24,000 nt of DNA from Marinobacter sp. NP-4(2019) (GTDB lineage: Bacteria; Pseudomonadota; Gammaproteobacteria; Pseudomonadales; Oleiphilaceae): NCBI RefSeq assembly GCF_003994855.1, contig NZ_CP034142.1:2703278-2727277 (forward strand). Reading direction: 5' to 3'. This document shows, piece after piece, positions 7,129-24,000 of this stretch. The notes below the pieces were generated by a model. That model searched no databases. It saw only the letters and a list, made by a program, of their open reading frames with translations, and was not told where the DNA came from. The position numbers were made by a program, and so were the translations under genes. Each line of letters starts with the position of its first letter. Position 1 is the stretch's first letter.

Positions 7129-8577
7129 ATGCTCAGGCGTACCAAAATTGTCGCCACCCTCGGACCCGCAACCGATTCCCCGGAAGCCCTCGCCGCCATT
7201 ATTGAAGCAGGCGTTGACGTAACCCGACTGAACTTTTCCCATGGCAGCGCCGAGGAGCACATCGACCGTGCTCGCCGCGTCCGCGAAACAGCCGCCAGCC
7301 AGAACCGTTTCGTTGCACTTCTGGCGGATCTTCAGGGCCCTAAACTCCGTATTGCCCGCTTTACGGACAACAAAGTCACTCTGAAGGCAGGTCAGACGTT
7401 CATCCTGGACGCCGGGATGGATAAAGAAGCCGGCACCGAAGAGCGCGTGGGTATCGATTACGAGCAACTCATTCAGGACGTGGAGCCCGGCGACATCCTG
7501 GTTCTGGATGACGGTCGCATCGAAATGGAGGTGACCTCGGTCGACGCCACCAGTATTACCTCCACGGTCCTTATCGGCGGCCCCCTGTCCAACAACAAGG
7601 GGCTGAACAAGCGCGGTGGTGGCCTGTCCGCCGATGCCCTGACCGAAAAGGACAAACAGGACATCGTGACGGCGGCCCGCCTCGGTGCGGACTACGTGGC
7701 GGTGTCATTCGTTCGAACCGCAGAAGACATGCATACCGCACGCCGACTGTTGACGGAAGCCGGCTCCGATGCAGGACTGGTCGCCAAGATCGAACGCGCG
7801 GAACTCGCCCATGACGTGGACGCCCTGGACGCTGTGATCGAAGCTTCGGATGCCGTGATGGTTGCCCGTGGCGACCTGGCAGTGGAGATTGGCGATGCCG
7901 AACTGGTCGGTGTGCAAAAGCACATTATCTCCCGCGCCCGCGTGCTGAACCGCGCCGTCATCACCGCCACCCAGATGATGGAGTCAATGATTACCAGCCC
8001 CATGCCCACACGGGCCGAAGTTTCCGACGTGGCCAATGCGGTCATGGATTACACCGATGCGGTGATGTTGTCTGCGGAAACCGCCGTTGGTGACTACCCG
8101 ACAGAAGCGGTGGAAGCCATGGTGCGCATCTGTCTGGGCGCCGAAAAGCAGCCTTCCATGCATCAGTCGAAGCACCGCATTCACGAGAGCATGGAGAAGG
8201 TGGACGAAGCCATTGCGTTGTCTGCCATGTATGCCGCCAACCACCTGGAAGGCGTGTCTGCGATCATCTGCATGACCGAAACCGGCGCCACGCCACGACT
8301 GATGTCCCGCATCAAGTCGAGCCTGCCGATTTTCGCCTTTTCCCGCCACCACTCCACCCAGCACCGGGTTGCGTTGCTCCGCGGCGTTCAGACCGTTCCG
8401 TTTGATTCGGCGAAGATTCCAAACGAGCGCACCAACGCGTTGGCGGTCTCCGAACTGATCAATCGACAGGTAGTCAAGGACGGAGACCTGGTGGTGATGA
8501 CCAAGGGCGACTACGTGAATGCCCAGGGTGGGACCAACACCATGAAAATCGTTCGGGTCGGGCAGGATATTCGCTGA
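7129..8577 (+). CDS. pyk: pyruvate kinase
   Basis: 482 aa. Motifs include [17 protein letters not shown] and [12 protein letters not shown]. The RBS is AAGGA. Confidence 0.95.
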
Positions 8578-8601: not shown

Positions 8602-9549
8602 TCATGTTGTGAAGAACTCCAGGAAGTAACTGTACAACCCGATACCAATCAACACGTTGAATGGAAAGGTAACGCCGAGAGAGGCCAGCATCGCCAGGCC
8701 AATATCGGCGTCGGGAATGGCATGCCTTACCGCTACGGGCGCCGCAATATAAGAGGCGCTCGCGGTAAGGGTGCCCAGGACCACAACTGTTCCGGGCTCC
8801 AACCCCAGCCAATGACCGGTTATCAGCCCGGGCAGGGAGAGAAGCGGCGGCATACACAGCGCAAATGCGATCAACCGCCAGTGTCGGAGCTGCACTTTTC
8901 GCAGGGTTTCTGCCGCTACGAGGCCCATTTCAAGAAGGAACAGGGACAGCACCAGAGAAAAAGCGCCCGTCAGGGGTGCTGTAACACCATCTCCCTTGTC
9001 GGGTCCGTAAAGGATTCCGATAACCACGCCGCCGACCAACAAGACCACGCTTCGATTGGTCAGGGTTTCCTGCCAAAGTGGTGTTCCCGCACTGGTGGAC
9101 TGGGCAGCCTCCTGAGTACAACGACGGTACAACCAAAGGCCGGTCAGGATCGCAGGCAACTCCAGCAACACCAGATAGAGGGTAACCTGCCCTCCGGTTG
9201 CCAATCCCCGGGCCTCAACCCAGGCCAACGCAACTGCAAAGGTACCCGCACTTACGGATCCGTAGTGAGCGCAAAAGCTGGCAGCATCCGCCACATTCAA
9301 ACGAACCAGATGCCGTAGCATCGGAAACAGCGCAAGGGGAATAGCAAAACCCAGCGCCATGATTGCCAACACTTCAGTCACCAGTCCCCAATGCAGGTTA
9401 CCGTGCAGGGCCATGCCACCTTTGAGGCCGATGGTCAGCATCAGCAGCAGACTGAGAACATCGTACGCTGCCTTGGGAATCGTCAGGTCCGAACGTAAGG
9501 TTCCGGCAATCACGCCGAGCAGGAAGAACATCACGATGATGTCAGGCAT
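8602..9549 (-). CDS. sodium-dependent bicarbonate transport (Sbt_1/DUF897) family permease
   Basis: Polytopic membrane protein whose N-terminus is PDIIVMFFLLGVIAGTLRSDLTIPKAAYDVLSLLLMLTIGLKGG, typical of this family. I prefer ATG 9549 over the track's TTG 9558, because GGAG sits 10 nt upstream of the ATG. Confidence 0.8.
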   Translation of the reverse strand: MPDIIVMFFLLGVIAGTLRSDLTIPKAAYDVLSLLLMLTIGLKGGMALHGNLHWGLVTEVLAIMALGFAIPLALFPMLRHLVRLNVADAASFCAHYGSVSAGTFAVALAWVEARGLATGGQVTLYLVLLELPAILTGLWLYRRCTQEAAQSTSAGTPLWQETLTNRSVVLLVGGVVIGILYGPDKGDGVTAPLTGAFSLVLSLFLLEMGLVAAETLRKVQLRHWRLIAFALCMPPLLSLPGLITGHWLGLEPGTVVVLGTLTASASYIAAPVAVRHAIPDADIGLAMLASLGVTFPFNVLIGIGLYSYFLEFFTT

Positions 9550-16109: not shown

Positions 16110-16171
16110 GGCTTCATCCTCCTGTTTTGTCTTCTCGTATCCGGTAGTCGAACGAGGCGCCACGTAATCGA

Positions 16172-17263
16172 CTAACGTCCCGGATAAACTTCCTTGATCT
16201 CAGGATCGGGCTCCATCCCCACGGCGTTCCAGCTCGGTAGCTCGTCCACCGCTCGTAGCGCTTGTGGCAGCGGCGAGCGAACGCTTTCCTCGACCCAGCG
16301 TTTACGCTCGATGTCGCCCTGTTTCAGTGCCATCATCATTCGGCGCCGCTCGGCGTCCGGCAGGTGGTCCGGCGGAATATGGCCAAGACACGGGTTGGCG
16401 TGATTGAGGGCGACACCATTAACCAGCCCACGTTGAACCTGCAGGGAGTAGTCCAGGGCGCGCATCGGCGGCGATGCCACCGGCGGAGCTTCCGGTTCGC
16501 AATAACCCGGTGGCTCGGTCATCTGGCCAAACGGCTCGCTGCCGGCGATATTGCGGAACCAGTATTGCCGTTCGGTGGCGCTGCAACTGTTGTCCGGCAC
16601 CATCCTCGCGGCGGTGTAAGCGCCCACGCTGGTCTGGCCCTCCCTAACCTGGGCCGTGGAATGGCAACTCATGCAGGCGGACTGGGGATTGTCCACCGGA
16701 CCGTTCAGGCGGCCATGCAAGCCAACGTGACCGTCGAACGGAGCCGGTACCGCCGGGTTGATCCAGGTCTCATCGAGATCGGGGTCGCCATCGAAGGTGA
16801 CGTCCGGGTCGTTCCCCCAAGCCAGCCCCACCGGAGTCAGGTTATACCAGCGCTGTTGCGGTGTTGCTGCAGGCAGTGATTCGTCGTACACGTAAGTGGC
16901 GAACACCCAACCGGTGTCGGTGGAACGCGGGTCTTTCACCGCGATATCCATCTGGATCAGTCGTACCTCGAAGGTGGCGTTCGACGCCGAGAACGGGTCC
17001 TGAATCTGCCAGGCAGGCGCATTGGCCAACGGATCGGGGCCAACAATGGCGGCGGGATCGTACTCGGCGAACAACACCTTGACCACCAATGTGCCGTCAA
17101 TGAACTGCGACTCGCCGGCATCGGCATTGCTCGGCTCCGGGTCGTGAAACACCTGCCCGATGGTGTAGCCGCCGTGCCAGTTGTACATTCCAATACCAAA
17201 GGCCCCCACATCAGAGGACAGCCACGACTGCTCGGATGCCCGCAGCCCGCGTTCGCGGGTCAA
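16172..17263 (-). CDS. C-terminal part of a split gene: CxxCH (heme c motif)-containing protein
   Basis: Contains ACMSCHS (CxxCH). The only start is a TTG with no SD that overlaps the upstream stop. The reading frame stays open upstream to 17356 (..REPRHGLTRERGL..), which suggests a frameshifted continuation of 17260-17754. Confidence 0.6.
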   Translation of the reverse strand: MTRERGLRASEQSWLSSDVGAFGIGMYNWHGGYTIGQVFHDPEPSNADAGESQFIDGTLVVKVLFAEYDPAAIVGPDPLANAPAWQIQDPFSASNATFEVRLIQMDIAVKDPRSTDTGWVFATYVYDESLPAATPQQRWYNLTPVGLAWGNDPDVTFDGDPDLDETWINPAVPAPFDGHVGLHGRLNGPVDNPQSACMSCHSTAQVREGQTSVGAYTAARMVPDNSCSATERQYWFRNIAGSEPFGQMTEPPGYCEPEAPPVASPPMRALDYSLQVQRGLVNGVALNHANPCLGHIPPDHLPDAERRRMMMALKQGDIERKRWVEESVRSPLPQALRAVDELPSWNAVGMEPDPEIKEVYPGR

Positions 17264-17754
17264 CCCATGGCGGGGCTCGCGGGGAAGAAGCCGGAGGTCA
17301 TCATCGGTACGTGGTACCAGCGTTTCTTGCCCAGGGTGTGGTTTTGCGGCACGAAATCATGGGGCACCAGGTCTGATAGCGCGTAGTCCTTCAAAGCCTC
17401 AAGGTATGAAGCCCGTTCGGCCGGATCGGTGAAATCAAATGCCAGCCAGGGTGCACTGTCAAATGGGGACAGTGGATCCCAACCGGTAATCTCGCCGTCG
17501 TCGTTCACTACCGGCACGCCAAGGGGATACCCCTGAGCCAGGCGAAACGCCTCCACATCACCCGGTGGCGCGGCCCGCGCTATCCAGTCGGGGAACCAGC
17601 CGGAACACTGAACGGTGTAGTCATCCCCGGCGCCGCCACCTTCCCCTGTCGTATCCTGTATGGGCGGATCAAACGTGGGGCGGCAGCCGGAGACCATGAA
17701 CGCACTGACAATCGCCAGGTACAACAGTCTACGGATCAGTTGATGGTTATCCAT
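17260..17754 (-). CDS. N-terminal part of the split gene: lipoprotein
   Basis: It has a lipobox signal (LLYLAIVSAFMVSG/C) and GGAGGG 4-5 nt upstream of the ATG. The start overlaps the 3' end of the upstream oxidase gene by 19 nt. Confidence 0.7.
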   Translation of the reverse strand: MDNHQLIRRLLYLAIVSAFMVSGCRPTFDPPIQDTTGEGGGAGDDYTVQCSGWFPDWIARAAPPGDVEAFRLAQGYPLGVPVVNDDGEITGWDPLSPFDSAPWLAFDFTDPAERASYLEALKDYALSDLVPHDFVPQNHTLGKKRWYHVPMMTSGFFPASPAMG

Positions 17755-20753
17755 TGTCCCTCCGATGGCACGCGCTGATCGTCGATAATGAAAAGCAGAT
17801 AGGCCCCCGGCGGCGCGATATTGCCGTTTGGGGGGAGCTCCACCTGCAGGGCAGCACCGTCAAGGGTGAACGCGCACTCCACAATGCGCTGCGACATATT
17901 GAAACCATGGGTGACCGCCCCCGGGGCCAGCAGGTGGACCGTCACGATATCCGCCGCTTCCGGCGAATCCACGGTTATCGTCGCGCCGTGGGCGGCGCTG
18001 GCCGGTGCGCTGGCAATCGTCGGCCGTGGCCGCTCGAAATACCCCGGCAGATAACGCTCGAACACGTCCGAATTGGGATCGCCGCCAACCAGCACACTGC
18101 CGTCGGCCAACAGGATCGCGGCGGAGTGGTATCCGCGATGGTGGGTCATCACCGGCCCCAGCGTGAAACCGCTGGCTACATCGTCGGCATCGAGCAGCTC
18201 CACCGCGCCTCCCCCGGCTACTGCATTGGCACCGCCAACCACCAGCACGTGCCCATCTGGCAGCAATACGGAGTTCACCTGCTCCGCCCGCTCCAGGTTC
18301 AGATCCGGAAGGCTTTGCCAAGCCGGCATCGCCTCCGAGAGGTCGATCAGCTCGGCGGTTTTTCGAGCGGGGGCAGTATTACCACCGATGACGACCACAC
18401 GGGGTGCGTAATCCGGTGGCCGCAACGGTAACAGCACCGAGGTGCCCTTCTCTCCCCCGGTGCTCCGGTTGCCGGCAATCGTGGCATAGGTTTCCAGGCC
18501 GCCGATGGGCTCGATGGTAAAGCGGTGGGTCGGATCGTGGGGGCCGGCGATGAACAGCCGGCCGTCCGGCAGCAGATAGGTCCATGGGTAATACTGGTGG
18601 TGGTCCATCGCCGCCGGGAAATCAACCGGCGCGCTCCAGGTGCCACTGGCGGAATCCCAGATCTCCAGGGATTTCGAGGCGGAGCCGTAAATTGTGGCAA
18701 TGCGACCGTCGGCCAGGGTCAGGGTAGTGGCGTAAAACCGTGGCTCGGCGGTGGACCCGGTCTGCGACCATTGTTCCGTGGCCGGGTCGAAGACAAAGGC
18801 ATTCACATAGTTGCCGCCGGGGCCGGCAAAGCCGCCGTGTCCCAGCACGCGACCGTCGGGAATAAAGGCGTGGGCCGCCGACCACAGGTCGGACAGGTCG
18901 CTGTCCATGCCCGGCAACGCCGCCGGCTGCGGCGAGGGCTCGGCAACCGTTGGCCCCGGCGGATCATAGAGGCGGGACTGGTCAGCCCGGGTATAGCCCC
19001 AATACAGCACCTTGTTGGTATCGGGCAGCAGGCAGGCGTGCATGAAGGTGACTTCCGGATCGACCTCCAGCTCCTCCCAGGTTCCGGGGCTGAGCTTGTC
19101 GCAGTATCCCATCTCAGCCATCGGTATGGGGTTGCTATCATCGAATAGCTGAATACGCCCTTCCGCCAGCAAGGTCTCCTTCATGGATTCGGTAAGCCAC
19201 ACATCCTTGTAGGATCGCACAACCGCGATCATGCCATTCATCATGTGGTGGTGGACGTGGCAATGCACCAGGAAGTCCCCCATCAACCGCACTTTCTCGG
19301 CGTCGGGTGGGCGGTCGTCGGCGTCCTGGATTGCCGCAACCTCCTCCGGCAGGATCAGCGCCGGTGGCGCCACCGTGTCGACAGTGAACGACTCCGCCGG
19401 CCCAACGGAGCGCACATCGTGATTCTCACCGGCCAGTTCCCAGCGGATGTTGTGGGGATGGAAATTGTGCCATTCGTGGCCAAAATCGAGGTTGAACACG
19501 TACCAGCGAATCTTCTGCCCGGCACGCGCAATGATGGTGGGCGTATTGCCCACAAACCCACGGCCATTGATGCAGTGGGTGACCAGCGCCGCCCCGTCCC
19601 TCGATGTCACGGTGTGGTGCTGCATGCTCAGGTTGTTCCAGGTAACCGTGCCGCCAGGCGCGACATCAATGGAGTCCGGATAGAAGCCCATTGCCGGCGC
19701 ATCGAGGATGTTGACCGTGGCAGTGGCCGGCGCACCGGAGACGACATTCACAGTACCGGTCATTGCCGGGTGGTAGGCACAGAAATACTCGTAGCTGCCG
19801 GCATCGTCGAAGGTGTGGTCAAAGGTGCCGGCGCCGTTTTCCTCCATATCGCCGCTGTCGAATGCGGGTTTGGCCTGGTCGCTGACCATCTGGTGCAGGA
19901 AAAACGGCACGTGCAGCGTATTCCAGTCTGGTCGTGGCCAGAACCGGAGGCGCAGGTCGCGCATCAGCCATTCCCGCAAGTCCTCGTACTGGTTCTGCAG
20001 CAGCAGTTCCTGCCTCCGTGTCAAACGGGCCCGCAGGGGTGTGCGGGGGTCCCTCCTGGCCGGTTTCGCCTGCTTCTTGGCGGGCGCACACAACGGCAAC
20101 TTGAGTCCCTTGTACACCATGTCGGGGAAACGTTCCGGCAGCGGGAGCGGAATGGGCCAGCGAAACGGGCGCTTGCGAATGATGATCCCGCCAAACAACC
20201 CCAGCTTGGAGCTGCCATGGGAGGCGTGTGAGGAATGATCGTGAAACGGCCAGGCACCGATCATGTTTTCCCGCACCTGATAGATATACGTCCAGGACTT
20301 TCCCGGGCAGATCTCATCGGATCGGCGACCATCCGCCGCCTGGGTCCCCATCGGCCAGGCGCCATCGGAATCGATGCCATATTCGATACCATGGATATGA
20401 AACGAATGGGGGCGATTGTCGGCATTATGCACGTGGATGCGAACGTTATCGCCAACGTAGGCATAGAGCACGCAACCGGGCACCCGATGATTCCACACCG
20501 GTTCATTAATGTCCGCATGGACCAGTTTGCTGGTGCGAGGAATCAGGTAATCGGCATCCTGATACTCACGGAAGGTCACCGCGCGCAGTGCGCGGGCATC
20601 ACGCTCGGCATCCGGGATCACCCCCATGGGGTGCCCCATGTAGTGCATGCCGTCGCGTTTGTACTGAATGGGGGGAATGGCAAAGGGGTCCGGCTCAACC
20701 GGGCTGTAATCCTCCATTGCCTCGATACGCAGGTAGAAATCCCTGTCCGCCAT
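17736..20753 (-). CDS. fusion protein: multicopper oxidase plus cupredoxin (N-terminal about 520 aa) joined to a galactose/glyoxal-oxidase-like kelch propeller with DUF1929-type E-set tail (C-terminal about 450 aa)
   Basis: All four MCO copper motifs are present: HSFHIHG, WPFHDHS, HNFHPHN and HCHVHHHMMNGM. A type-1 site is YFCAYHPAM. Radical-copper-oxidase-like motifs are HACLLPD, PRFYATTLTLADGR, GYHSAAILLADGSVLVGG and AVTHGFNMSQR. The RBS GGAG lies 7 nt upstream of ATG 20753. Confidence 0.85.
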   Translation of the reverse strand: MADRDFYLRIEAMEDYSPVEPDPFAIPPIQYKRDGMHYMGHPMGVIPDAERDARALRAVTFREYQDADYLIPRTSKLVHADINEPVWNHRVPGCVLYAYVGDNVRIHVHNADNRPHSFHIHGIEYGIDSDGAWPMGTQAADGRRSDEICPGKSWTYIYQVRENMIGAWPFHDHSSHASHGSSKLGLFGGIIIRKRPFRWPIPLPLPERFPDMVYKGLKLPLCAPAKKQAKPARRDPRTPLRARLTRRQELLLQNQYEDLREWLMRDLRLRFWPRPDWNTLHVPFFLHQMVSDQAKPAFDSGDMEENGAGTFDHTFDDAGSYEYFCAYHPAMTGTVNVVSGAPATATVNILDAPAMGFYPDSIDVAPGGTVTWNNLSMQHHTVTSRDGAALVTHCINGRGFVGNTPTIIARAGQKIRWYVFNLDFGHEWHNFHPHNIRWELAGENHDVRSVGPAESFTVDTVAPPALILPEEVAAIQDADDRPPDAEKVRLMGDFLVHCHVHHHMMNGMIAVVRSYKDVWLTESMKETLLAEGRIQLFDDSNPIPMAEMGYCDKLSPGTWEELEVDPEVTFMHACLLPDTNKVLYWGYTRADQSRLYDPPGPTVAEPSPQPAALPGMDSDLSDLWSAAHAFIPDGRVLGHGGFAGPGGNYVNAFVFDPATEQWSQTGSTAEPRFYATTLTLADGRIATIYGSASKSLEIWDSASGTWSAPVDFPAAMDHHQYYPWTYLLPDGRLFIAGPHDPTHRFTIEPIGGLETYATIAGNRSTGGEKGTSVLLPLRPPDYAPRVVVIGGNTAPARKTAELIDLSEAMPAWQSLPDLNLERAEQVNSVLLPDGHVLVVGGANAVAGGGAVELLDADDVASGFTLGPVMTHHRGYHSAAILLADGSVLVGGDPNSDVFERYLPGYFERPRPTIASAPASAAHGATITVDSPEAADIVTVHLLAPGAVTHGFNMSQRIVECAFTLDGAALQVELPPNGNIAPPGAYLLFIIDDQRVPSEGQWITIN

Positions 20754-20803
20754 AATATGCCTCCATGCAGATGATTCGCGTCCTGGAACGTTGCCCGACA
20801 GCG

Positions 20804-20829
20804 ACGCATAGATGCGTATTTAATGCGTA
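20804..20829 (-). promoter_or_regulatory. repeat cluster upstream of the oxidase gene (candidate response-regulator box)
   Basis: The minus strand reads TACGCAT-TAAA-TACGCAT-CT-ATGCGT. Two 7-mers are in direct repeat at 11-bp periodicity, with a third inverted copy. The cluster lies about 50-75 nt upstream of the ATG. Confidence 0.4.
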
Positions 20830-20895
20830 CTTACAACAGAGTAGCCCTCCTCGAACATTCAACAAGATCGAAATGTTCTTTAAAATTCCTGCATA

Positions 20896-20952
20896 GAAGA
20901 ACGGCTTACATGCTCCTGTTACCCTTGAAAGGGCCAACATGACCCGTTTCCT
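20896..20952 (-). repeat. attC-like element E (after the DinB-family gene)
   Basis: The plus strand reads GAAGAACGGCTTACATGCTCC...CATGACCCGTTTCCT. The AACGG/CCGTT and CATG arms pair, and there is a central CCCTT-TC-AAGGG hairpin. The element begins 3 nt after the stop codon. Confidence 0.4.
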
Positions 20953-20955
20953 CAC

Positions 20956-21507
20956 CTACTTGCCCACTTGAGCCAGGGTCTCCTGAATCCGATCCAAGAG
21001 GTCGGTAACCCCGATATCCACACCCATCTGTGACAGTAAAGTAGAAACTTGCCCCCGATGGTGAGTCTGATGGTTAAAGAAATGCAGAACCAGGCTCGAA
21101 TATCGTTTATTGGCAGGAATCCCTTCGATGTTGTGGTAGCCGAGAACGAAATCCAGATCGCCTTCGGACAGCTCGGCTATCCAGTTGATAATCTGACGAT
21201 CCAACCAGATCCGCTGCTCAGACAAGCTACCAAGATCGTTAAAGAGTATCTGATCCAGCCTGGTCGGATTTTGAAGATCAGCCACTTCCCGCAACGAGTT
21301 CAGGCAGGACGGATGGGTGGCAAATCGTTTGAGCCAGATAATGTCACCAACGAGGATGTGATTCAGGGTGCCCAGGATGGAGCCGAAAAAGGCCCCCCGA
21401 TCTTTGGCCAAATCTGTTGCAGAGAGATGTCCCGCAGCCTCATAGACCTTCGAGTTCATCCACTGATTGTAGGCGGCCAGCAATTCAAAGTGATTTTTCA
21501 AGCTCAT
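20956..21507 (-). CDS. DinB-family (DinB_2/YfiT-like) protein
   Basis: 183 aa starting MSLKNHFELLAAYNQWMN..., with His-rich motifs LNHILVGDIIW and HFFNHQTHHRGQ. The start is set at ATG 21507. The track's 275-aa ORF runs back through the higA remnant. Confidence 0.85.
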   Translation of the reverse strand: MSLKNHFELLAAYNQWMNSKVYEAAGHLSATDLAKDRGAFFGSILGTLNHILVGDIIWLKRFATHPSCLNSLREVADLQNPTRLDQILFNDLGSLSEQRIWLDRQIINWIAELSEGDLDFVLGYHNIEGIPANKRYSSLVLHFFNHQTHHRGQVSTLLSQMGVDIGVTDLLDRIQETLAQVGK

Positions 21508-21517
21508 CAGAGTTCCT

Positions 21518-21815
21518 TCATTTCCATATCGGAGGCTCTCGTTGGTCCAGAGGGTGAATGTCATCCAGGTTGGCCGTGTTGCGGGCCACCCAAAGATCGT
21601 ACATATCCTGCATCGCGAGCCAACTTTCAGGAGTACGCCCAAGAACCTTCGATAACCGCAGAGACATTTCCAGACTGATACCGCTATCCCCTTTGAGCAG
21701 CCGAGACAAGGTGGAGGGTGCCCCCCAGACTCGAAGAAAGCTGACGAGAACTGATGCCTAAAGGCTCGAGGTACACCTACCAAATGAACTCACCAGGATG
21801 CGGCGGATTATGCAT
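21518..21815 (-). pseudogene. higA: HigA-family antitoxin (XRE HTH), inactivated by a nonsense codon and a frameshift
   Basis: The ATG at 21815 overlaps the yoeB stop (TAATG). The product reads MHNPPHPGEFIW, then TAG (21779-21777), then VYLEPLGISSRQLSSSLG. A +1 frame change at the G6 run (plus-strand C6 at 21721-21726) leads to APSTLSRLLKGDSGISLEMSLRLSKVLGRTPESWLAMQ... Confidence 0.75.
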
Positions 21816-22078
21816 TATTCGTAGTGGCTCCAGAGCCTGAGAACTTTCACCACCTGCTCGTCTTCGAGCACCTGGTAAACCAGACGATGCTGAATATTGA
21901 TTCGGCGTGAATAGGCCCCCGCAAGGTCACCAATGAGCTTCTCAAACGGAGGCGGTTTGCGGTACGGATCTTCAGCTATCAGCGCTAACAGTTCCTGGGC
22001 TTTTGGTTTAAGGCCGCTGGAGGCCAACTTCTTTGCATCTTTCTGGGCTTGCTTGGTGTAAACCAACTTCCATGTCAC
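21815..22078 (-). CDS. yoeB: Txe/YoeB family type II toxin
   Basis: 87 aa. The sequence ...YSRRINIQHRLVYQVLEDEQVVKVLRLWSHYE is typical of the YoeB C-terminus. It overlaps yefM by ATGA. Confidence 0.9.
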   Translation of the reverse strand: MTWKLVYTKQAQKDAKKLASSGLKPKAQELLALIAEDPYRKPPPFEKLIGDLAGAYSRRINIQHRLVYQVLEDEQVVKVLRLWSHYE

Positions 22079-22317
22079 CAGTCCAGCTCCTCATCGCATT
22101 CATCCACTGGGGTATCCATCCCCTCGCGAATAGACTCCCGCATGCCTGGCACGGAGAGCAGGTAAAGTGTTTCCTGAATAGCCGACCAGTCTTCTTCGGA
22201 TACCAAGACGGCCTTGTTCCGCTTACCCATAATGACGATTGGTTGGTGTGACTCGGCTGTTTCATCAATCAACCGATAAAGGTTGCTGCGCGCCTCAGTT
22301 GCTGTAATTCCTGTCAT
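22075..22317 (-). CDS. yefM: Phd/YefM family type II antitoxin
   Basis: 80 aa. The sequence ITATEARSNLYRLIDETAESHQPIVIMGKRNKAVLVSEEDWSAIQETLYLLS is canonical YefM. The RBS GAGGT lies 5 nt upstream. Confidence 0.9.
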   Translation of the reverse strand: MTGITATEARSNLYRLIDETAESHQPIVIMGKRNKAVLVSEEDWSAIQETLYLLSVPGMRESIREGMDTPVDECDEELDW

Positions 22318-22349
22318 GACGCACCTCTTGCGTGTTTAACTTTTAATCA

Positions 22350-22377
22350 ATTGTACGCTTTTGAGTACGTACGTCAA
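22350..22377 (-). promoter_or_regulatory. sigma70-type promoter of yefM-yoeB with GTAC operator repeats
   Basis: The minus strand reads TTGACG (22377-22372), then a 16-nt spacer, then TACAAT (22355-22350). Three GTAC cores (22353, 22365, 22369) overlap it, as in YefM-YoeB autoregulated operators. Confidence 0.6.
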
Positions 22378-22486
22378 GACGAACGCCTTGATGGATTCCA
22401 GCTTATCCCAGTATGTGATGAGGATAAGCTCAACTTTGCCTGTCATGAACTTTTTCCAATCACTCTCTTTCATGGGTAACTCGGAA

Positions 22487-22570
22487 CTCTAACGCCGCCA
22501 GCATGCGCGACTACGGAATGTAGGCGAAGCCGGACTGGAGCAAACGTCGCCGTGACTGGCCTGATTAGGT
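22487..22570 (-). repeat. attC-like element A
   Basis: The plus strand reads CTCTAACGCCGCCAGCATGCGC...GTCGCCGTGACTGGCCTGATTAGGT. The CTAA/TTAG and GCCAG/CTGGC arms pair. It abuts the stop of the 22570-22980 ORF. Confidence 0.45.
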
Positions 22571-22980
22571 TAACGATTCCAAACTCTCTCTGGTGGCTGA
22601 CCAAGCTGCCACTCTACATAATCTTCGGGTGGTGCACCGATATCAGCAATATGCTCAGCCTTGAACGGAATCTCCGCACCAAAAACTAAATACACATCGT
22701 CCTCTGGCTCAACGGTGGCAGGCTTGGAATCCAAAGTGCCAATGTAACTGTCCCCGATCACCTCCGATACGATAACCCACATTCTTTCCACTTGAATAAA
22801 TGGAGCACCGCCTTCATCCAAAAATTCAATTTGAAACAGTAACTTCTCAGCGTCACCTCTCTTTAGACTTTTCCGTGCGGCGAGTTCAGGAATCCAGAAT
22901 GTGTCTGGTGCTTTCGCGTGCGATTCCTCTGCACTTCCCAGCTCCCAGTGGTCTTGTTCAAACGATGGCATTTCTATCAT
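22570..22980 (-). CDS. DUF2314-like protein (136 aa)
   Basis: FWIPELAARKSLKRGDAEKLLFQIEF...VERMWVIVSEVIGDSYIGTLDSKPA... matches my memory of the DUF2314 (YegJ-like) pattern. There is no SD. The start is ATG 22980 or the ATG 9 nt downstream. Confidence 0.65.
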   Translation of the reverse strand: MIEMPSFEQDHWELGSAEESHAKAPDTFWIPELAARKSLKRGDAEKLLFQIEFLDEGGAPFIQVERMWVIVSEVIGDSYIGTLDSKPATVEPEDDVYLVFGAEIPFKAEHIADIGAPPEDYVEWQLGQPPERVWNR

Positions 22981-22981
22981 G

Positions 22982-23044
22982 CGAGAACGCTGCTCCTGAA
23001 CCTCACGTTGGCGCGGCCAAAAAAATGACTATTGCCTGTTGATT
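22982..23044 (-). repeat. attC-like element C
   Basis: The plus strand reads CGAGAACGCTGCTCC...GTTGGCGCGGCCAA...ATTGCCTGTTGATT. It shares AACGC and TTGGCGCGG-C-AA with element B and fills the whole gap between two ORFs. Confidence 0.35.
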
Positions 23045-23063
23045 CCGAGAAGGCTCATATGTG

Positions 23064-23537
23064 TCATAAATTCTCCCGGACGAACTGCTCCACACTGAGA
23101 TGTTGCCCCTGTTTCTGATAATGCCTGTCTATAGCGTAAGCCATTTTTTCCAGCGGAGCTTCGTCGTACCCCAAATCCTGAATCTCTCGAATGTAGCGCT
23201 CTACAAAACCTTGAGGGGTGAGTTCCCGCCATTGAATCACATGAACCAATTCATGGAAGTGAAGTCGCAACTCGTTCGCTGCACTTTTCTTCACATAATA
23301 GGTGTCATTGTACGTAATGCCTCCAACATCCATGTCGATGAAATCTCCCAAACCCGCTTCCCGTAACTCGGGAAAATCGGGCTTCGGAATTTCGTCGGTA
23401 ACAACGAAAAATGCTGTGTTGAGGAAGTCGGGCGAATAGAAGCCTTTAAAGTGTTCTTCAAAGACGGAGCAGGACTGACGTACCTCTTTGTAGGAGGAAT
23501 TAACCTGGTGTATCCATTGCTCGATCTTGTCGATCAT
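23064..23537 (-). CDS. hypothetical protein with an HExxH zincin-like motif (157 aa)
   Basis: LRLHFHELVHVIQW contains HELVH. The RBS AGGAGAGG lies 3-4 nt upstream of ATG 23537. No signal peptide is present. Confidence 0.7.
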   Translation of the reverse strand: MIDKIEQWIHQVNSSYKEVRQSCSVFEEHFKGFYSPDFLNTAFFVVTDEIPKPDFPELREAGLGDFIDMDVGGITYNDTYYVKKSAANELRLHFHELVHVIQWRELTPQGFVERYIREIQDLGYDEAPLEKMAYAIDRHYQKQGQHLSVEQFVRENL

Positions 23538-23549
23538 AACCTCTCCTAT

Positions 23550-23616
23550 TTATAACGCCCGGCACATGCGCTGGTTTGGCGCGGACAAGCGGTCGCCGTG
23601 ATGCCGCTGGTTATGT
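23550..23616 (-). repeat. attC-like element B
   Basis: The plus strand reads TTATAACGCCCGGCACATGCGC...GTCGCCGTGATGCCGCTGGTTATGT. ATAAC/GTTAT and CGGCA/TGCCG pair around a 3-nt internal mismatch, giving an R/L-box-like layout. Confidence 0.45.
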
Positions 23617-23733
23617 GGCTGAATCATCCAGTTTTTTGTCGATCGCCGACGTATCGATATATTTTTTGATGACGAGCCAGTTTTTCTCGCTGGTCTGCAT
23701 GACGGCGATACCAACTACCAGAATCCCAACCAA
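23611..23733 (-). CDS. possible 40-aa membrane micro-ORF
   Basis: AGGAGG lies 7 nt upstream of TTG 23733. The product is (M)VGILVVGIAVMQTSEKNWLVIKKYIDTSAIDKKLDDSAT. The stop TAA lies inside the CACATAAC end of element B. It is below the ORF-track size cut-off. Confidence 0.35.
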   Translation of the reverse strand: MVGILVVGIAVMQTSEKNWLVIKKYIDTSAIDKKLDDSAT

Positions 23734-23745
23734 GACTCCACCTCC

Positions 23746-23940
23746 TTACAGAATCGCTGGATGGCTTGCTGATTCATACCACCGAAAGGAAAGAAGAAGA
23801 ATAAGAACGCACGCAATCCATAGCGTCCAGTTGAACCAAGACCGCGTAATGACAGCAGGTTTATTGCTATCAACCTTTTTAAGGAGCTCTTCAAGCACCT
23901 TTCTTTCCTGTTTCTCCGTCACAACTCCTCCAATACTCAT
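23746..23940 (-). CDS. small membrane protein (64 aa), unknown function
   Basis: The start is set at ATG 23940 (MSIGGVVTEKQERK...), because the upstream 17 codons of the track ORF lie inside repeat D. There is one TM segment (WTLWIACVLILLLSF). Confidence 0.55.
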   Translation of the reverse strand: MSIGGVVTEKQERKVLEELLKKVDSNKPAVITRSWFNWTLWIACVLILLLSFRWYESASHPAIL

Positions 23941-24000
23941 AACGCAGAGCGCACCGGTGGCCTTTACAGAGCGAAGCGGCGTAAAGGACATTTGCGTGAC
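23937..24000 (-). repeat. attC-like element D (truncated by the window end)
   Basis: The plus strand reads TCATAACGCAGAGCGCACCGGTGGCC..., the same AACGC-type end as A, B and C. On the minus strand it ends GCGTTATGA, with the next ORF's ATG embedded. Confidence 0.35.

Follow-up and report, generated by a model that had tools for sequence, protein, structure and literature searches.

The DNA considered here, hereafter the window, is a stretch of 24,000 nt from the chromosome of Marinobacter sp. NP-4(2019), and from 20.9 to 24.0 kb it carries an integron-type cassette array in which minus-strand genes are bounded by attC sites. Core metabolism (glucokinase, Edd, GAPDH, and pyruvate kinase) occupies 1-9 kb, and exact protein matches yield GenBank accessions that rise along the window coordinate, from GlpD (AZT84252), pyruvate kinase (AZT84257), an S8 peptidase (AZT84262), and an oxidase (AZT84268) to DinB (AZT84269), YoeB (AZT84270), YefM (AZT84271), and an open reading frame (ORF) of 157 aa (EHN06_12385, AZT84272). 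At about 20.5-21 kb the GC content falls from 0.60-0.66 to 0.48-0.52, and every plausible ORF from 20956 to 23991 lies on the minus strand. An earlier examination of the letters alone (the sequence-only reading) had described minus-strand cassette genes, AT-richer DNA from the array edge, a cargo of orphan ORFs, a DinB-family gene and a toxin-antitoxin module with its own promoter, and five homogeneous attC-like repeats with left ends at 22487 (A), 23550 (B), 22982 (C), 23937 (D), and 20896 (E). All five ends were found as quoted, and strand, composition, and cargo are borne out, the cargo by Pfam and by a sigma-70-like site upstream of yefM. However, of the five proposed repeats, just three (A, B, and D) are real attC sites by two models and by anatomy; C and E match neither model. 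The cassette-array reading rests on these independent attC models, on covariation, and on cassette boundaries in other genomes, and the region is probably the distal end of a chromosomal integron gene-cassette array that lies apart from the integrase of the genome. Such a cluster of attC sites lacking an integron integrase is termed a CALIN in the definition of IntegronFinder (Cury et al. 2016, PMC4889954).

The three attC sites share one design, and the window plus strand is their recombinogenic bottom strand, with the cassettes read on the minus strand. Site D occupies 23936-24000 (minus strand), where its 3' two thirds score 19.6 bits (E=0.017) with the covariance model R1 described below and its 5' part lies beyond the window end. 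Complete copies of D in two metagenome contigs (L001:965-1044 and L003:700-779) are 80 nt long and score 46.5 bits (E=2e-11). The site ends in GCATAAC and GTTATGA (complete in L003), and the ATG inside the latter, its R' box, may be the start of the next ORF. In its folded bottom strand, a spacer of 4 nt separates a 7-bp R box from an L box, which has one bulge on the 3' arm. Site B (23549-23617, minus strand; R1 45.2 bits, E=2.7e-12) is 67-69 nt long, has an attC-like fold, and is delimited by R'' = ACATAAC, which carries the TAA stop of the upstream ORF, and R' = GTTATAA; its top strand reads ACATAAC-CAGC-GGCA-T-CAC-G-GCG-A-C...GCGCATG-TGCC-GGGC-GTTATAA. Site A (22486-22571, minus strand; R1 28.8 bits, E=7.5e-7) measures 84-86 nt, with R'' = CCTAATC, in which AAC is mutated to AAT, and R' = GTTAGAG. 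It repeats the plan of B, except that GCCAG/CTGGC stands for GGCA/TGCC, which is a compensatory change, and over ~80 nt it is 80-85% identical to attC sites within arrays that adjoin IntI (L027 3423-3508 and L031 6956-7037). The inverse core sites of the top strand, RYYYAAC (R'') and its complementary partner GTTRRRY (R'), are present in A, B, and D, each departing from the strict consensus at one or two positions, and are absent from C and E. A, B, and D also fall within the attC length range of 57-141 bp and lie directly 3' of a co-oriented ORF, the stop codon of which is inside R'' or no more than 7 nt from it. The attC hairpin, with R box, L box, unpaired spacer, and variable terminal structure, is seen in the folds of B and D as well as in the structure of R1.

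Two models were used to recognize attC sites. A profile HMM, made from seven attC sites in arrays of other genomes and none from the window, matched B (nhmmer E=1.5e-6), A (0.024), and D, cut at the window end (0.074), and gave no further match in the window. The covariance model R1 was built from alignment A3, which holds 19 foreign attC sites of the 80-nt type, and was run with filters off; the foreign sites came from arrays around an identical yefM protein in complete genomes, which contain dozens of repeats. The restriction to the 80-nt type was made because a MAFFT alignment of mixed attC types misaligned the arms. R1 has a 5-bp R box, a 4-nt spacer, and a stem broken by single unpaired columns at 17, 21, and 25. 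In the 24-kb window every match besides full-length B and A and the truncated D has E>3, and the core DNA of positions 1-20,800 has no match with E<=3. Across 474 kb of fetched loci R1 returned 77 matches, all but one on the cassette strand of array-bearing loci, and 13 unrelated control loci (~250 kb) gave a single match with E=0.35.

The covariation is equally consistent. In A3, 88% of the cells in paired columns are paired against 34-40% in slid controls, and 14 of the 26 pairs show compensatory change, a result that none of 500 shuffles equalled. For the 75 distinct R1 matches (alignment A4) the corresponding figures are 87.6% and 24 of 26, both somewhat inflated since A4 was fitted to R1. 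Published attC features include a conserved bottom-strand T, a 6-bp spacing, and extrahelical bases opposite the bottom-strand AAC (PMC5027507). Here, column 25 is an invariant top-strand A, equivalent to the conserved bottom-strand T, in sets of 28 and of 19 foreign sites as well as in A and B; 6 bp separate the first from the last extrahelical base, and these bases stand on the correct arm, opposite the AAC of the bottom strand.

The elements might instead be generic intergenic palindromes, such as REP/BIME-like repeats or terminators, and in part they do look like this. Minimum-free-energy z-scores of the single hairpins range from -2.5 to +0.6, which is not significant against shuffled sequence, and C and E are indeed mere hairpin-like spacers. 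Home-made scanners, based on R/L box rules or on arm complementarity, also failed to separate arrays from control loci and were dropped. The support for attC identity is drawn from covariation and comparative data and not from folding energy. On those grounds the palindrome explanation is highly improbable. REP/BIME elements are scattered in both orientations, whereas this family is strictly strand-biased and confined to the cassette strand of arrays, with no match in the 20.8 kb of core DNA; the sequence-only reading had asked that the repeats not be scattered, and this holds for the window and the fetched loci. No T run follows the hairpins, no terminator-like site coincides with A, B, or D, the paired columns covary, and in L027 and L031 the family is physically linked to IntI. 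Moreover, homology between genomes breaks exactly at the GTT, as expected of an attC boundary (G|TT of R'), for the 157-aa, yefM-yoeB, and dinB cassettes.

Between D and A, the attC sites would delimit two excisable units, one formed by a 126-aa ORF and the other by a pair of 157 and 136 aa. The first, a cassette ORF of unassigned function (23611-23991, minus strand), aligns with L003 over 381 nt with four mismatches and no indel. It encodes 126 aa in L003 and is intact in L003 and L005, both metagenome contigs; the window copy is interrupted by a nonsense codon at 23746-23748. The B-to-A cassette begins with the 157-aa orphan ORF (AZT84272.1; 23064-23537, minus strand), for which Pfam gave no match, and continues with a 136-aa orphan ORF (EHN06_12380, AZT85867.1; 22570-22980, minus strand). 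An 86%-identical homologue of the 157-aa gene stands in locus L046 as a single-ORF cassette. Its homology to the window begins exactly at the G of B's GTTATAA (23556) and stops at the stop codon, after which L046 has a canonical 60-nt attC (AACTAAC...GTTAGGT). The window has at this place element C (22981-23063), an intergenic spacer that differs from the L046 attC and contains nothing recognizable as one. Neither the HMM nor R1 with filters off matched C, and its AAC...GTT pair and small central hairpin are accompanied by L arms that are not complementary, with no attC-like fold. Judging from these sequences, the attC of the 157-aa cassette appears to have been replaced by C in the window, so that the 157-aa and 136-aa ORFs would now be one unit between B and A. 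It should also be mentioned that three metagenome contigs (L001, L002, and L003, 99% identical) leave the window at 22639, inside the 136-aa ORF. Past this point (L001 2342-2480, L002, and L003) they encode an IS66-like N-terminal peptide followed by a convergent membrane-protein gene or VIT1, which indicates that the population holds another rearranged version of the array end.

To the left of A the array is no longer made of intact cassettes. While the attC-bounded units described above uphold the sequence-only reading of an integron cassette array, the stretch from A to E is better described as a decayed tail. It opens with a 100-nt filler (22386-22485, minus strand) between attC A and the toxin-antitoxin cassette; a 45-aa ORF here (22336-22473) is unlikely to be a gene. 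The filler stands where the toxin-antitoxin cassette of the window lacks its normal R' junction (GTTATGCAGAC), and in ten other genomes a canonical attC ending GCGTTATGC lies immediately upstream of the same cassette. The cassette core (21800-22385, minus strand) comprises a yefM/phd antitoxin gene (yefM, 22075-22317) and a yoeB/parE-type toxin gene (yoeB, 21815-22078), both confirmed by Pfam, preceded by the best sigma-70-like promoter of the region (TTGACG-16-TACAAT, 22377-22350 on the minus strand). Cassettes of 10 genomes match this yefM-yoeB pair at 88-93% identity; in them an attC of 80 nt comes after the stop codon, and the sequences diverge after GTTA. The window pair retains only the first ~13 nt of its attC (21800-21814), fused to a higA-like gene. 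The latter is an antitoxin pseudogene (21518-21812, minus strand), here higA', which three-frame translation shows to be broken by an in-frame TAG and, at a G6 run, by a frameshift. It is accompanied by no higB and has an attC on neither side, and its ATG overlaps the stop codon of yoeB. Over its first 13 nt, higA' is similar to the beginning of the usual attC of yoeB, a similarity that suggests deletion by way of microhomology. A microhomology deletion from a yefM-yoeB/higBA arrangement like that of Marinobacter sp. Arc7-DN-1 (L022; PMC9948230) was considered as the origin of higA' and is unproven, since the window higA is unrelated to that of L022 at the DNA level.

The last gene of the tail is the dinB-family gene (AZT84269.1, 183 aa; 20956-21507, minus strand; Pfam E=1.4e-25). 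In the Marinobacter arrays of L043, L044, and L045 an 84%-identical dinB of 180 aa starts after GTTATACATGA, is followed by an A-type attC, and diverges after GTTA; the window dinB differs from this mobile cassette in its last residues (the C-terminus) and at both junctions. Element E (20896-20955), at the array edge, is an atypical hairpin matched by neither R1 nor the HMM. It pairs AACGG with CCGTT and CATG with CATG, with the extra bases on the wrong arm. E is not the native attC of dinB, nor is it supported as an attC. Taken together, yefM-yoeB, higA', and dinB look like three former cassettes whose attC sites were presumably lost by deletion. With the attC sites gone from 20.9-22.4 kb, these three would no longer be individually excisable, and the segment may be regarded as a fixed tail that ends at ~20908 beside the copper-oxidase operon.

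The same cassettes are well represented elsewhere. The yefM-yoeB, dinB, and 157-aa cassettes recur in other Marinobacter arrays, two of them beside bona fide IntI. An identical YefM protein with its cassette is present in many complete genomes, the yefM-yoeB cassette with identical YefM occurs in >1,281 indexed blocks of an assembly collection, and entries from Marinobacter, Halomonas, and Pseudomonas are found in its protein clusters. On TIGR02249, the integron integrase family (cut-off 265), the proteins at the head of the arrays in L031 (M. zhejiangensis) and L027 reach 408 and 413 bits, respectively. They are 49% identical to IntI1, which served only as a tblastn probe and whose matches were confirmed independently by TIGR02249. 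In L025 and L026 the neighbour of yefM-yoeB is an intI remnant of 98 aa adjoining nrdAB, and a second yefM-yoeB pair is present in inverted orientation. The locus thereby illustrates the circulation of the same cassettes (toxin-antitoxin, dinB, and orphan) in Marinobacter, Halomonas, and related genera.

The position of the integrase is a further point on which the sequence-only reading is not supported. It had expected an integrase beyond nt 24000, and the two metagenome contigs L001 and L003 (99% identical) extend the window by 715-980 nt. The extension does contain two more cassettes, for a SagB/nitroreductase protein (AZT84273.1) and a glyoxalase, with attC-like ends by eye, but there is no intI in the 980 nt. 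At least three further attC sites are visible by eye in the 980-nt extension, where R1 scored only the missing 5' part of D. Contigs that carry window cassettes measure at most 3 kb and are broken inside attC repeats. No tyrosine recombinase or intI was found in the window, in the 980-nt extension, or in L001-L007, and the metagenome arrays with the glyoxalase cassette have no intI within 10 kb. On a 74-kb contig of a different organism, the nitroreductase cassette lies 4 kb from a truncated intI.

NP-4(2019) does possess an integron integrase. Its IntI (AZT85670.1 / WP_127334244.1, 321 aa) scores 406.6 bits on TIGR02249, and its neighbour is a first cassette encoding a SUKH/SMI1 protein (AZT85669.1 / WP_127334243.1). 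The window cassettes are numbered AZT84269-84273 / WP_127332868-69, which places IntI ~1,400 proteins away in the GenBank as well as the RefSeq series. In the metagenome contig L051, which encodes the identical IntI, intI is followed by a LexA box (CTGTATATATGTACAG), an attI with crossover GTTAGGC, the SUKH cassette, and a canonical attC; within L051 547-765 the LexA box, a perfect one, lies between intI and attI, and the first cassette is of the SUKH/SMI1 immunity type. The arrangement of a complete integron, in which intI is adjacent and divergent with attI in between, was not seen at the window array in the sequence read as far as +980 nt, and accession order speaks indirectly against it beyond that point. 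The largest array described in PMC5371416 has 203 cassettes, therefore an array of 1,400 cassettes linking the two loci is not credible. With IntI apparently ~1,400 genes away, the locus is best read as a CALIN that could be mobilized only in trans, and we consider it likely that the array is separate from the complete integron of this genome.

Several observations weigh against this reading. Rfam 15 at the gathering threshold found no match in the window, and nothing in the output points to an attC family in it; R1 is a self-built model, on the bottom strand the first extrahelical base is not the usual G but A or C, and the AAT in place of AAC in R'' may impair the activity of A. The distance from intI is taken from accession order, the sequence having been read only to 24,980, and one GenBank number is out of order, as the 136-aa ORF is AZT85867. 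The RefSeq series agrees with GenBank, and AZT85867 fits a small tail block after ~3,950 expected in-order proteins, a tail in which IntI does not fit. A pseudogenized intI at the proximal end of the array, having no protein accession, may also have escaped notice.

This last point bears on an alternative in which the array belongs, as its distal part, to a sedentary chromosomal integron that is complete, with intI or its pseudogene and attI further beyond nt 24000. The orientation would agree with this, as the cassettes point away from higher coordinates, and the array runs on for at least two cassettes and three attC sites past the window. Truncated intI genes do stand beside small arrays in relatives (L026, 98 aa; L052, 137 aa), and such remnants may carry no protein accession. 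In addition, the plus-strand GC skew is negative across the whole window (1-24000; the cumulative value reaches -2.16), so that the attC bottom strands appear to be on the leading-strand template, as in 25 of 30 such integrons, an orientation of low excision that is typical of sedentary integrons (PMC5371416). Nevertheless, we regard this alternative as rather unlikely: the IntI of the genome is ~1,400 proteins off in two accession series and sits beside its own first cassette, no known array reaches that length, and neither the window nor the extension contains an intI.

The left flank of the array deserves separate consideration. It consists of an operon for a fusion of multicopper oxidase, cupredoxin, and galactose-oxidase/kelch domains (1005 aa; 17736-20753, minus strand) and a cytochrome P460-like protein (527 aa; 16171-17754, minus strand) with a weak P460 match. 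The pair is rare in Marinobacter, as the next best protein-database match is 66% identical (76% in a Marinobacterium genome), and relatives at 50-55% occur, among others, in Nitrosomonas, Nitrosopumilus, and Acidobacteriota. At ~17260-17285 a C4 vs. C5 homopolymer difference from the otherwise identical L021 divides the P460-like gene into two ORFs, through either a true frameshift or an error of assembly. A sister metagenome-assembled genome of Marinobacter sp. (L007) is 94% identical in the oxidase gene region up to window position 20908, where the identity starts (TAAGCCGTTCTTC...). Beyond 20908, L007 has wholly different cassettes (BrnT/A, ParE/RHH, and orphans) with several attC-like ends, for example GCCTAAC...GTTAGCA, and its contig ends inside the array. 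The oxidase/P460 operon (window 16174-20908; L007 3050-9110) is the only segment common to the two. In L007 it lies within the array, between cassettes that bear attC sites. The far side there begins with a degenerate attC arm (7860-7880), continues with an orphan of 176 aa and its attC-like site (8429-8495; R1 18.9 bits), and then has a cupin ORF, behind which stands a weak attC-like site (9034-9107); the window continues with ordinary genes. At the left edge, the identity between window and L007 stops 7 nt upstream of a GTT, and at the right edge just after a GTT, within the TAG/TGA stop of the P460-like gene. It is conceivable, although improbable, that the 4.7-kb operon (16174-20908) is itself cargo of the cassette array; in that case metabolic operons of several kilobases would be moved or trapped by integron arrays, beyond the usual small promoterless ORFs. 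A common integron locus for L007 and L025 could not be deduced, because their molybdopterin oxidoreductases are not orthologous (27% identity).

As to how the locus may operate, the established integron pathway offers a model. SOS induction would allow IntI to bind D, B, and possibly A at their folded bottom strands (the window plus strand). Recombination of two attC sites would then release the 126-aa and 157/136-aa units as circles, which could be reinserted at the distant attI, the array being mobilized by the remote IntI only in trans. As the array is off the intI/attI platform, its cassettes would be without the Pc promoter, and only the toxin-antitoxin module would be expected to be reliably transcribed. 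This module may in turn discourage loss of the region and so stabilize it (PMC13108822). The attC anatomy, the cassette boundaries, the association of this attC family with IntI in relatives, and an IntI with a LexA box in NP-4(2019) are the observed parts of this scheme; its course is proposed by analogy.

The locus adds one more chromosomal cassette array in Marinobacter, a genus in which integron integrases are already widely annotated. It provides an example of distal array decay, with three cassettes apparently fixed by attC loss, and illustrates that an attC cluster need not adjoin an integrase. Overall, it is an ordinary example of a known element, with no resistance genes and no indication of a new mechanism.

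Among the closest known systems is the CALIN, for which at least two attC sites on one strand and no intI within 4 kb of the last attC are required (PMC4889954). Like CALINs, the array shows two or more attC sites on one strand that bound promoterless cassettes, no intI in the DNA read, a cargo mostly of unknown function, and an IntI elsewhere in the genome, as is the case for about half of the CALINs in that study. It differs in that, beyond the 0.98 kb read, the absence of intI within 4 kb is deduced from accession numbers, and in that the distal third of the array is without attC sites. With sedentary chromosomal integrons (the Vibrio superintegron type of marine Gammaproteobacteria, and those annotated in M. 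zhejiangensis, M. subterrani, and Marinobacter sp. KM021) it shares the chromosomal location, an attC family that is genus-specific, fairly homogeneous, and marked by three extrahelical bases, toxin-antitoxin cassettes that bring their own promoters (PMC13108822), cassette content that varies between close relatives, and a LexA-controlled intI in the same strain (L051). It departs from them in apparently lying off the intI/attI platform and in having A or C, not G, as the first extrahelical base. Finally, the attC sites of mobile integrons (59-base elements, such as those of aadA1 and aadA7) follow the same R''-L''...L'-R' logic, with the GTT crossover, a length in the range of 57-141 nt, and extrahelical bases that face the bottom-strand AAC; the sites described here are longer (67-86 nt), have three instead of two extrahelical bases, and belong to a chromosomal array free of resistance genes, not to one borne on a transposon.

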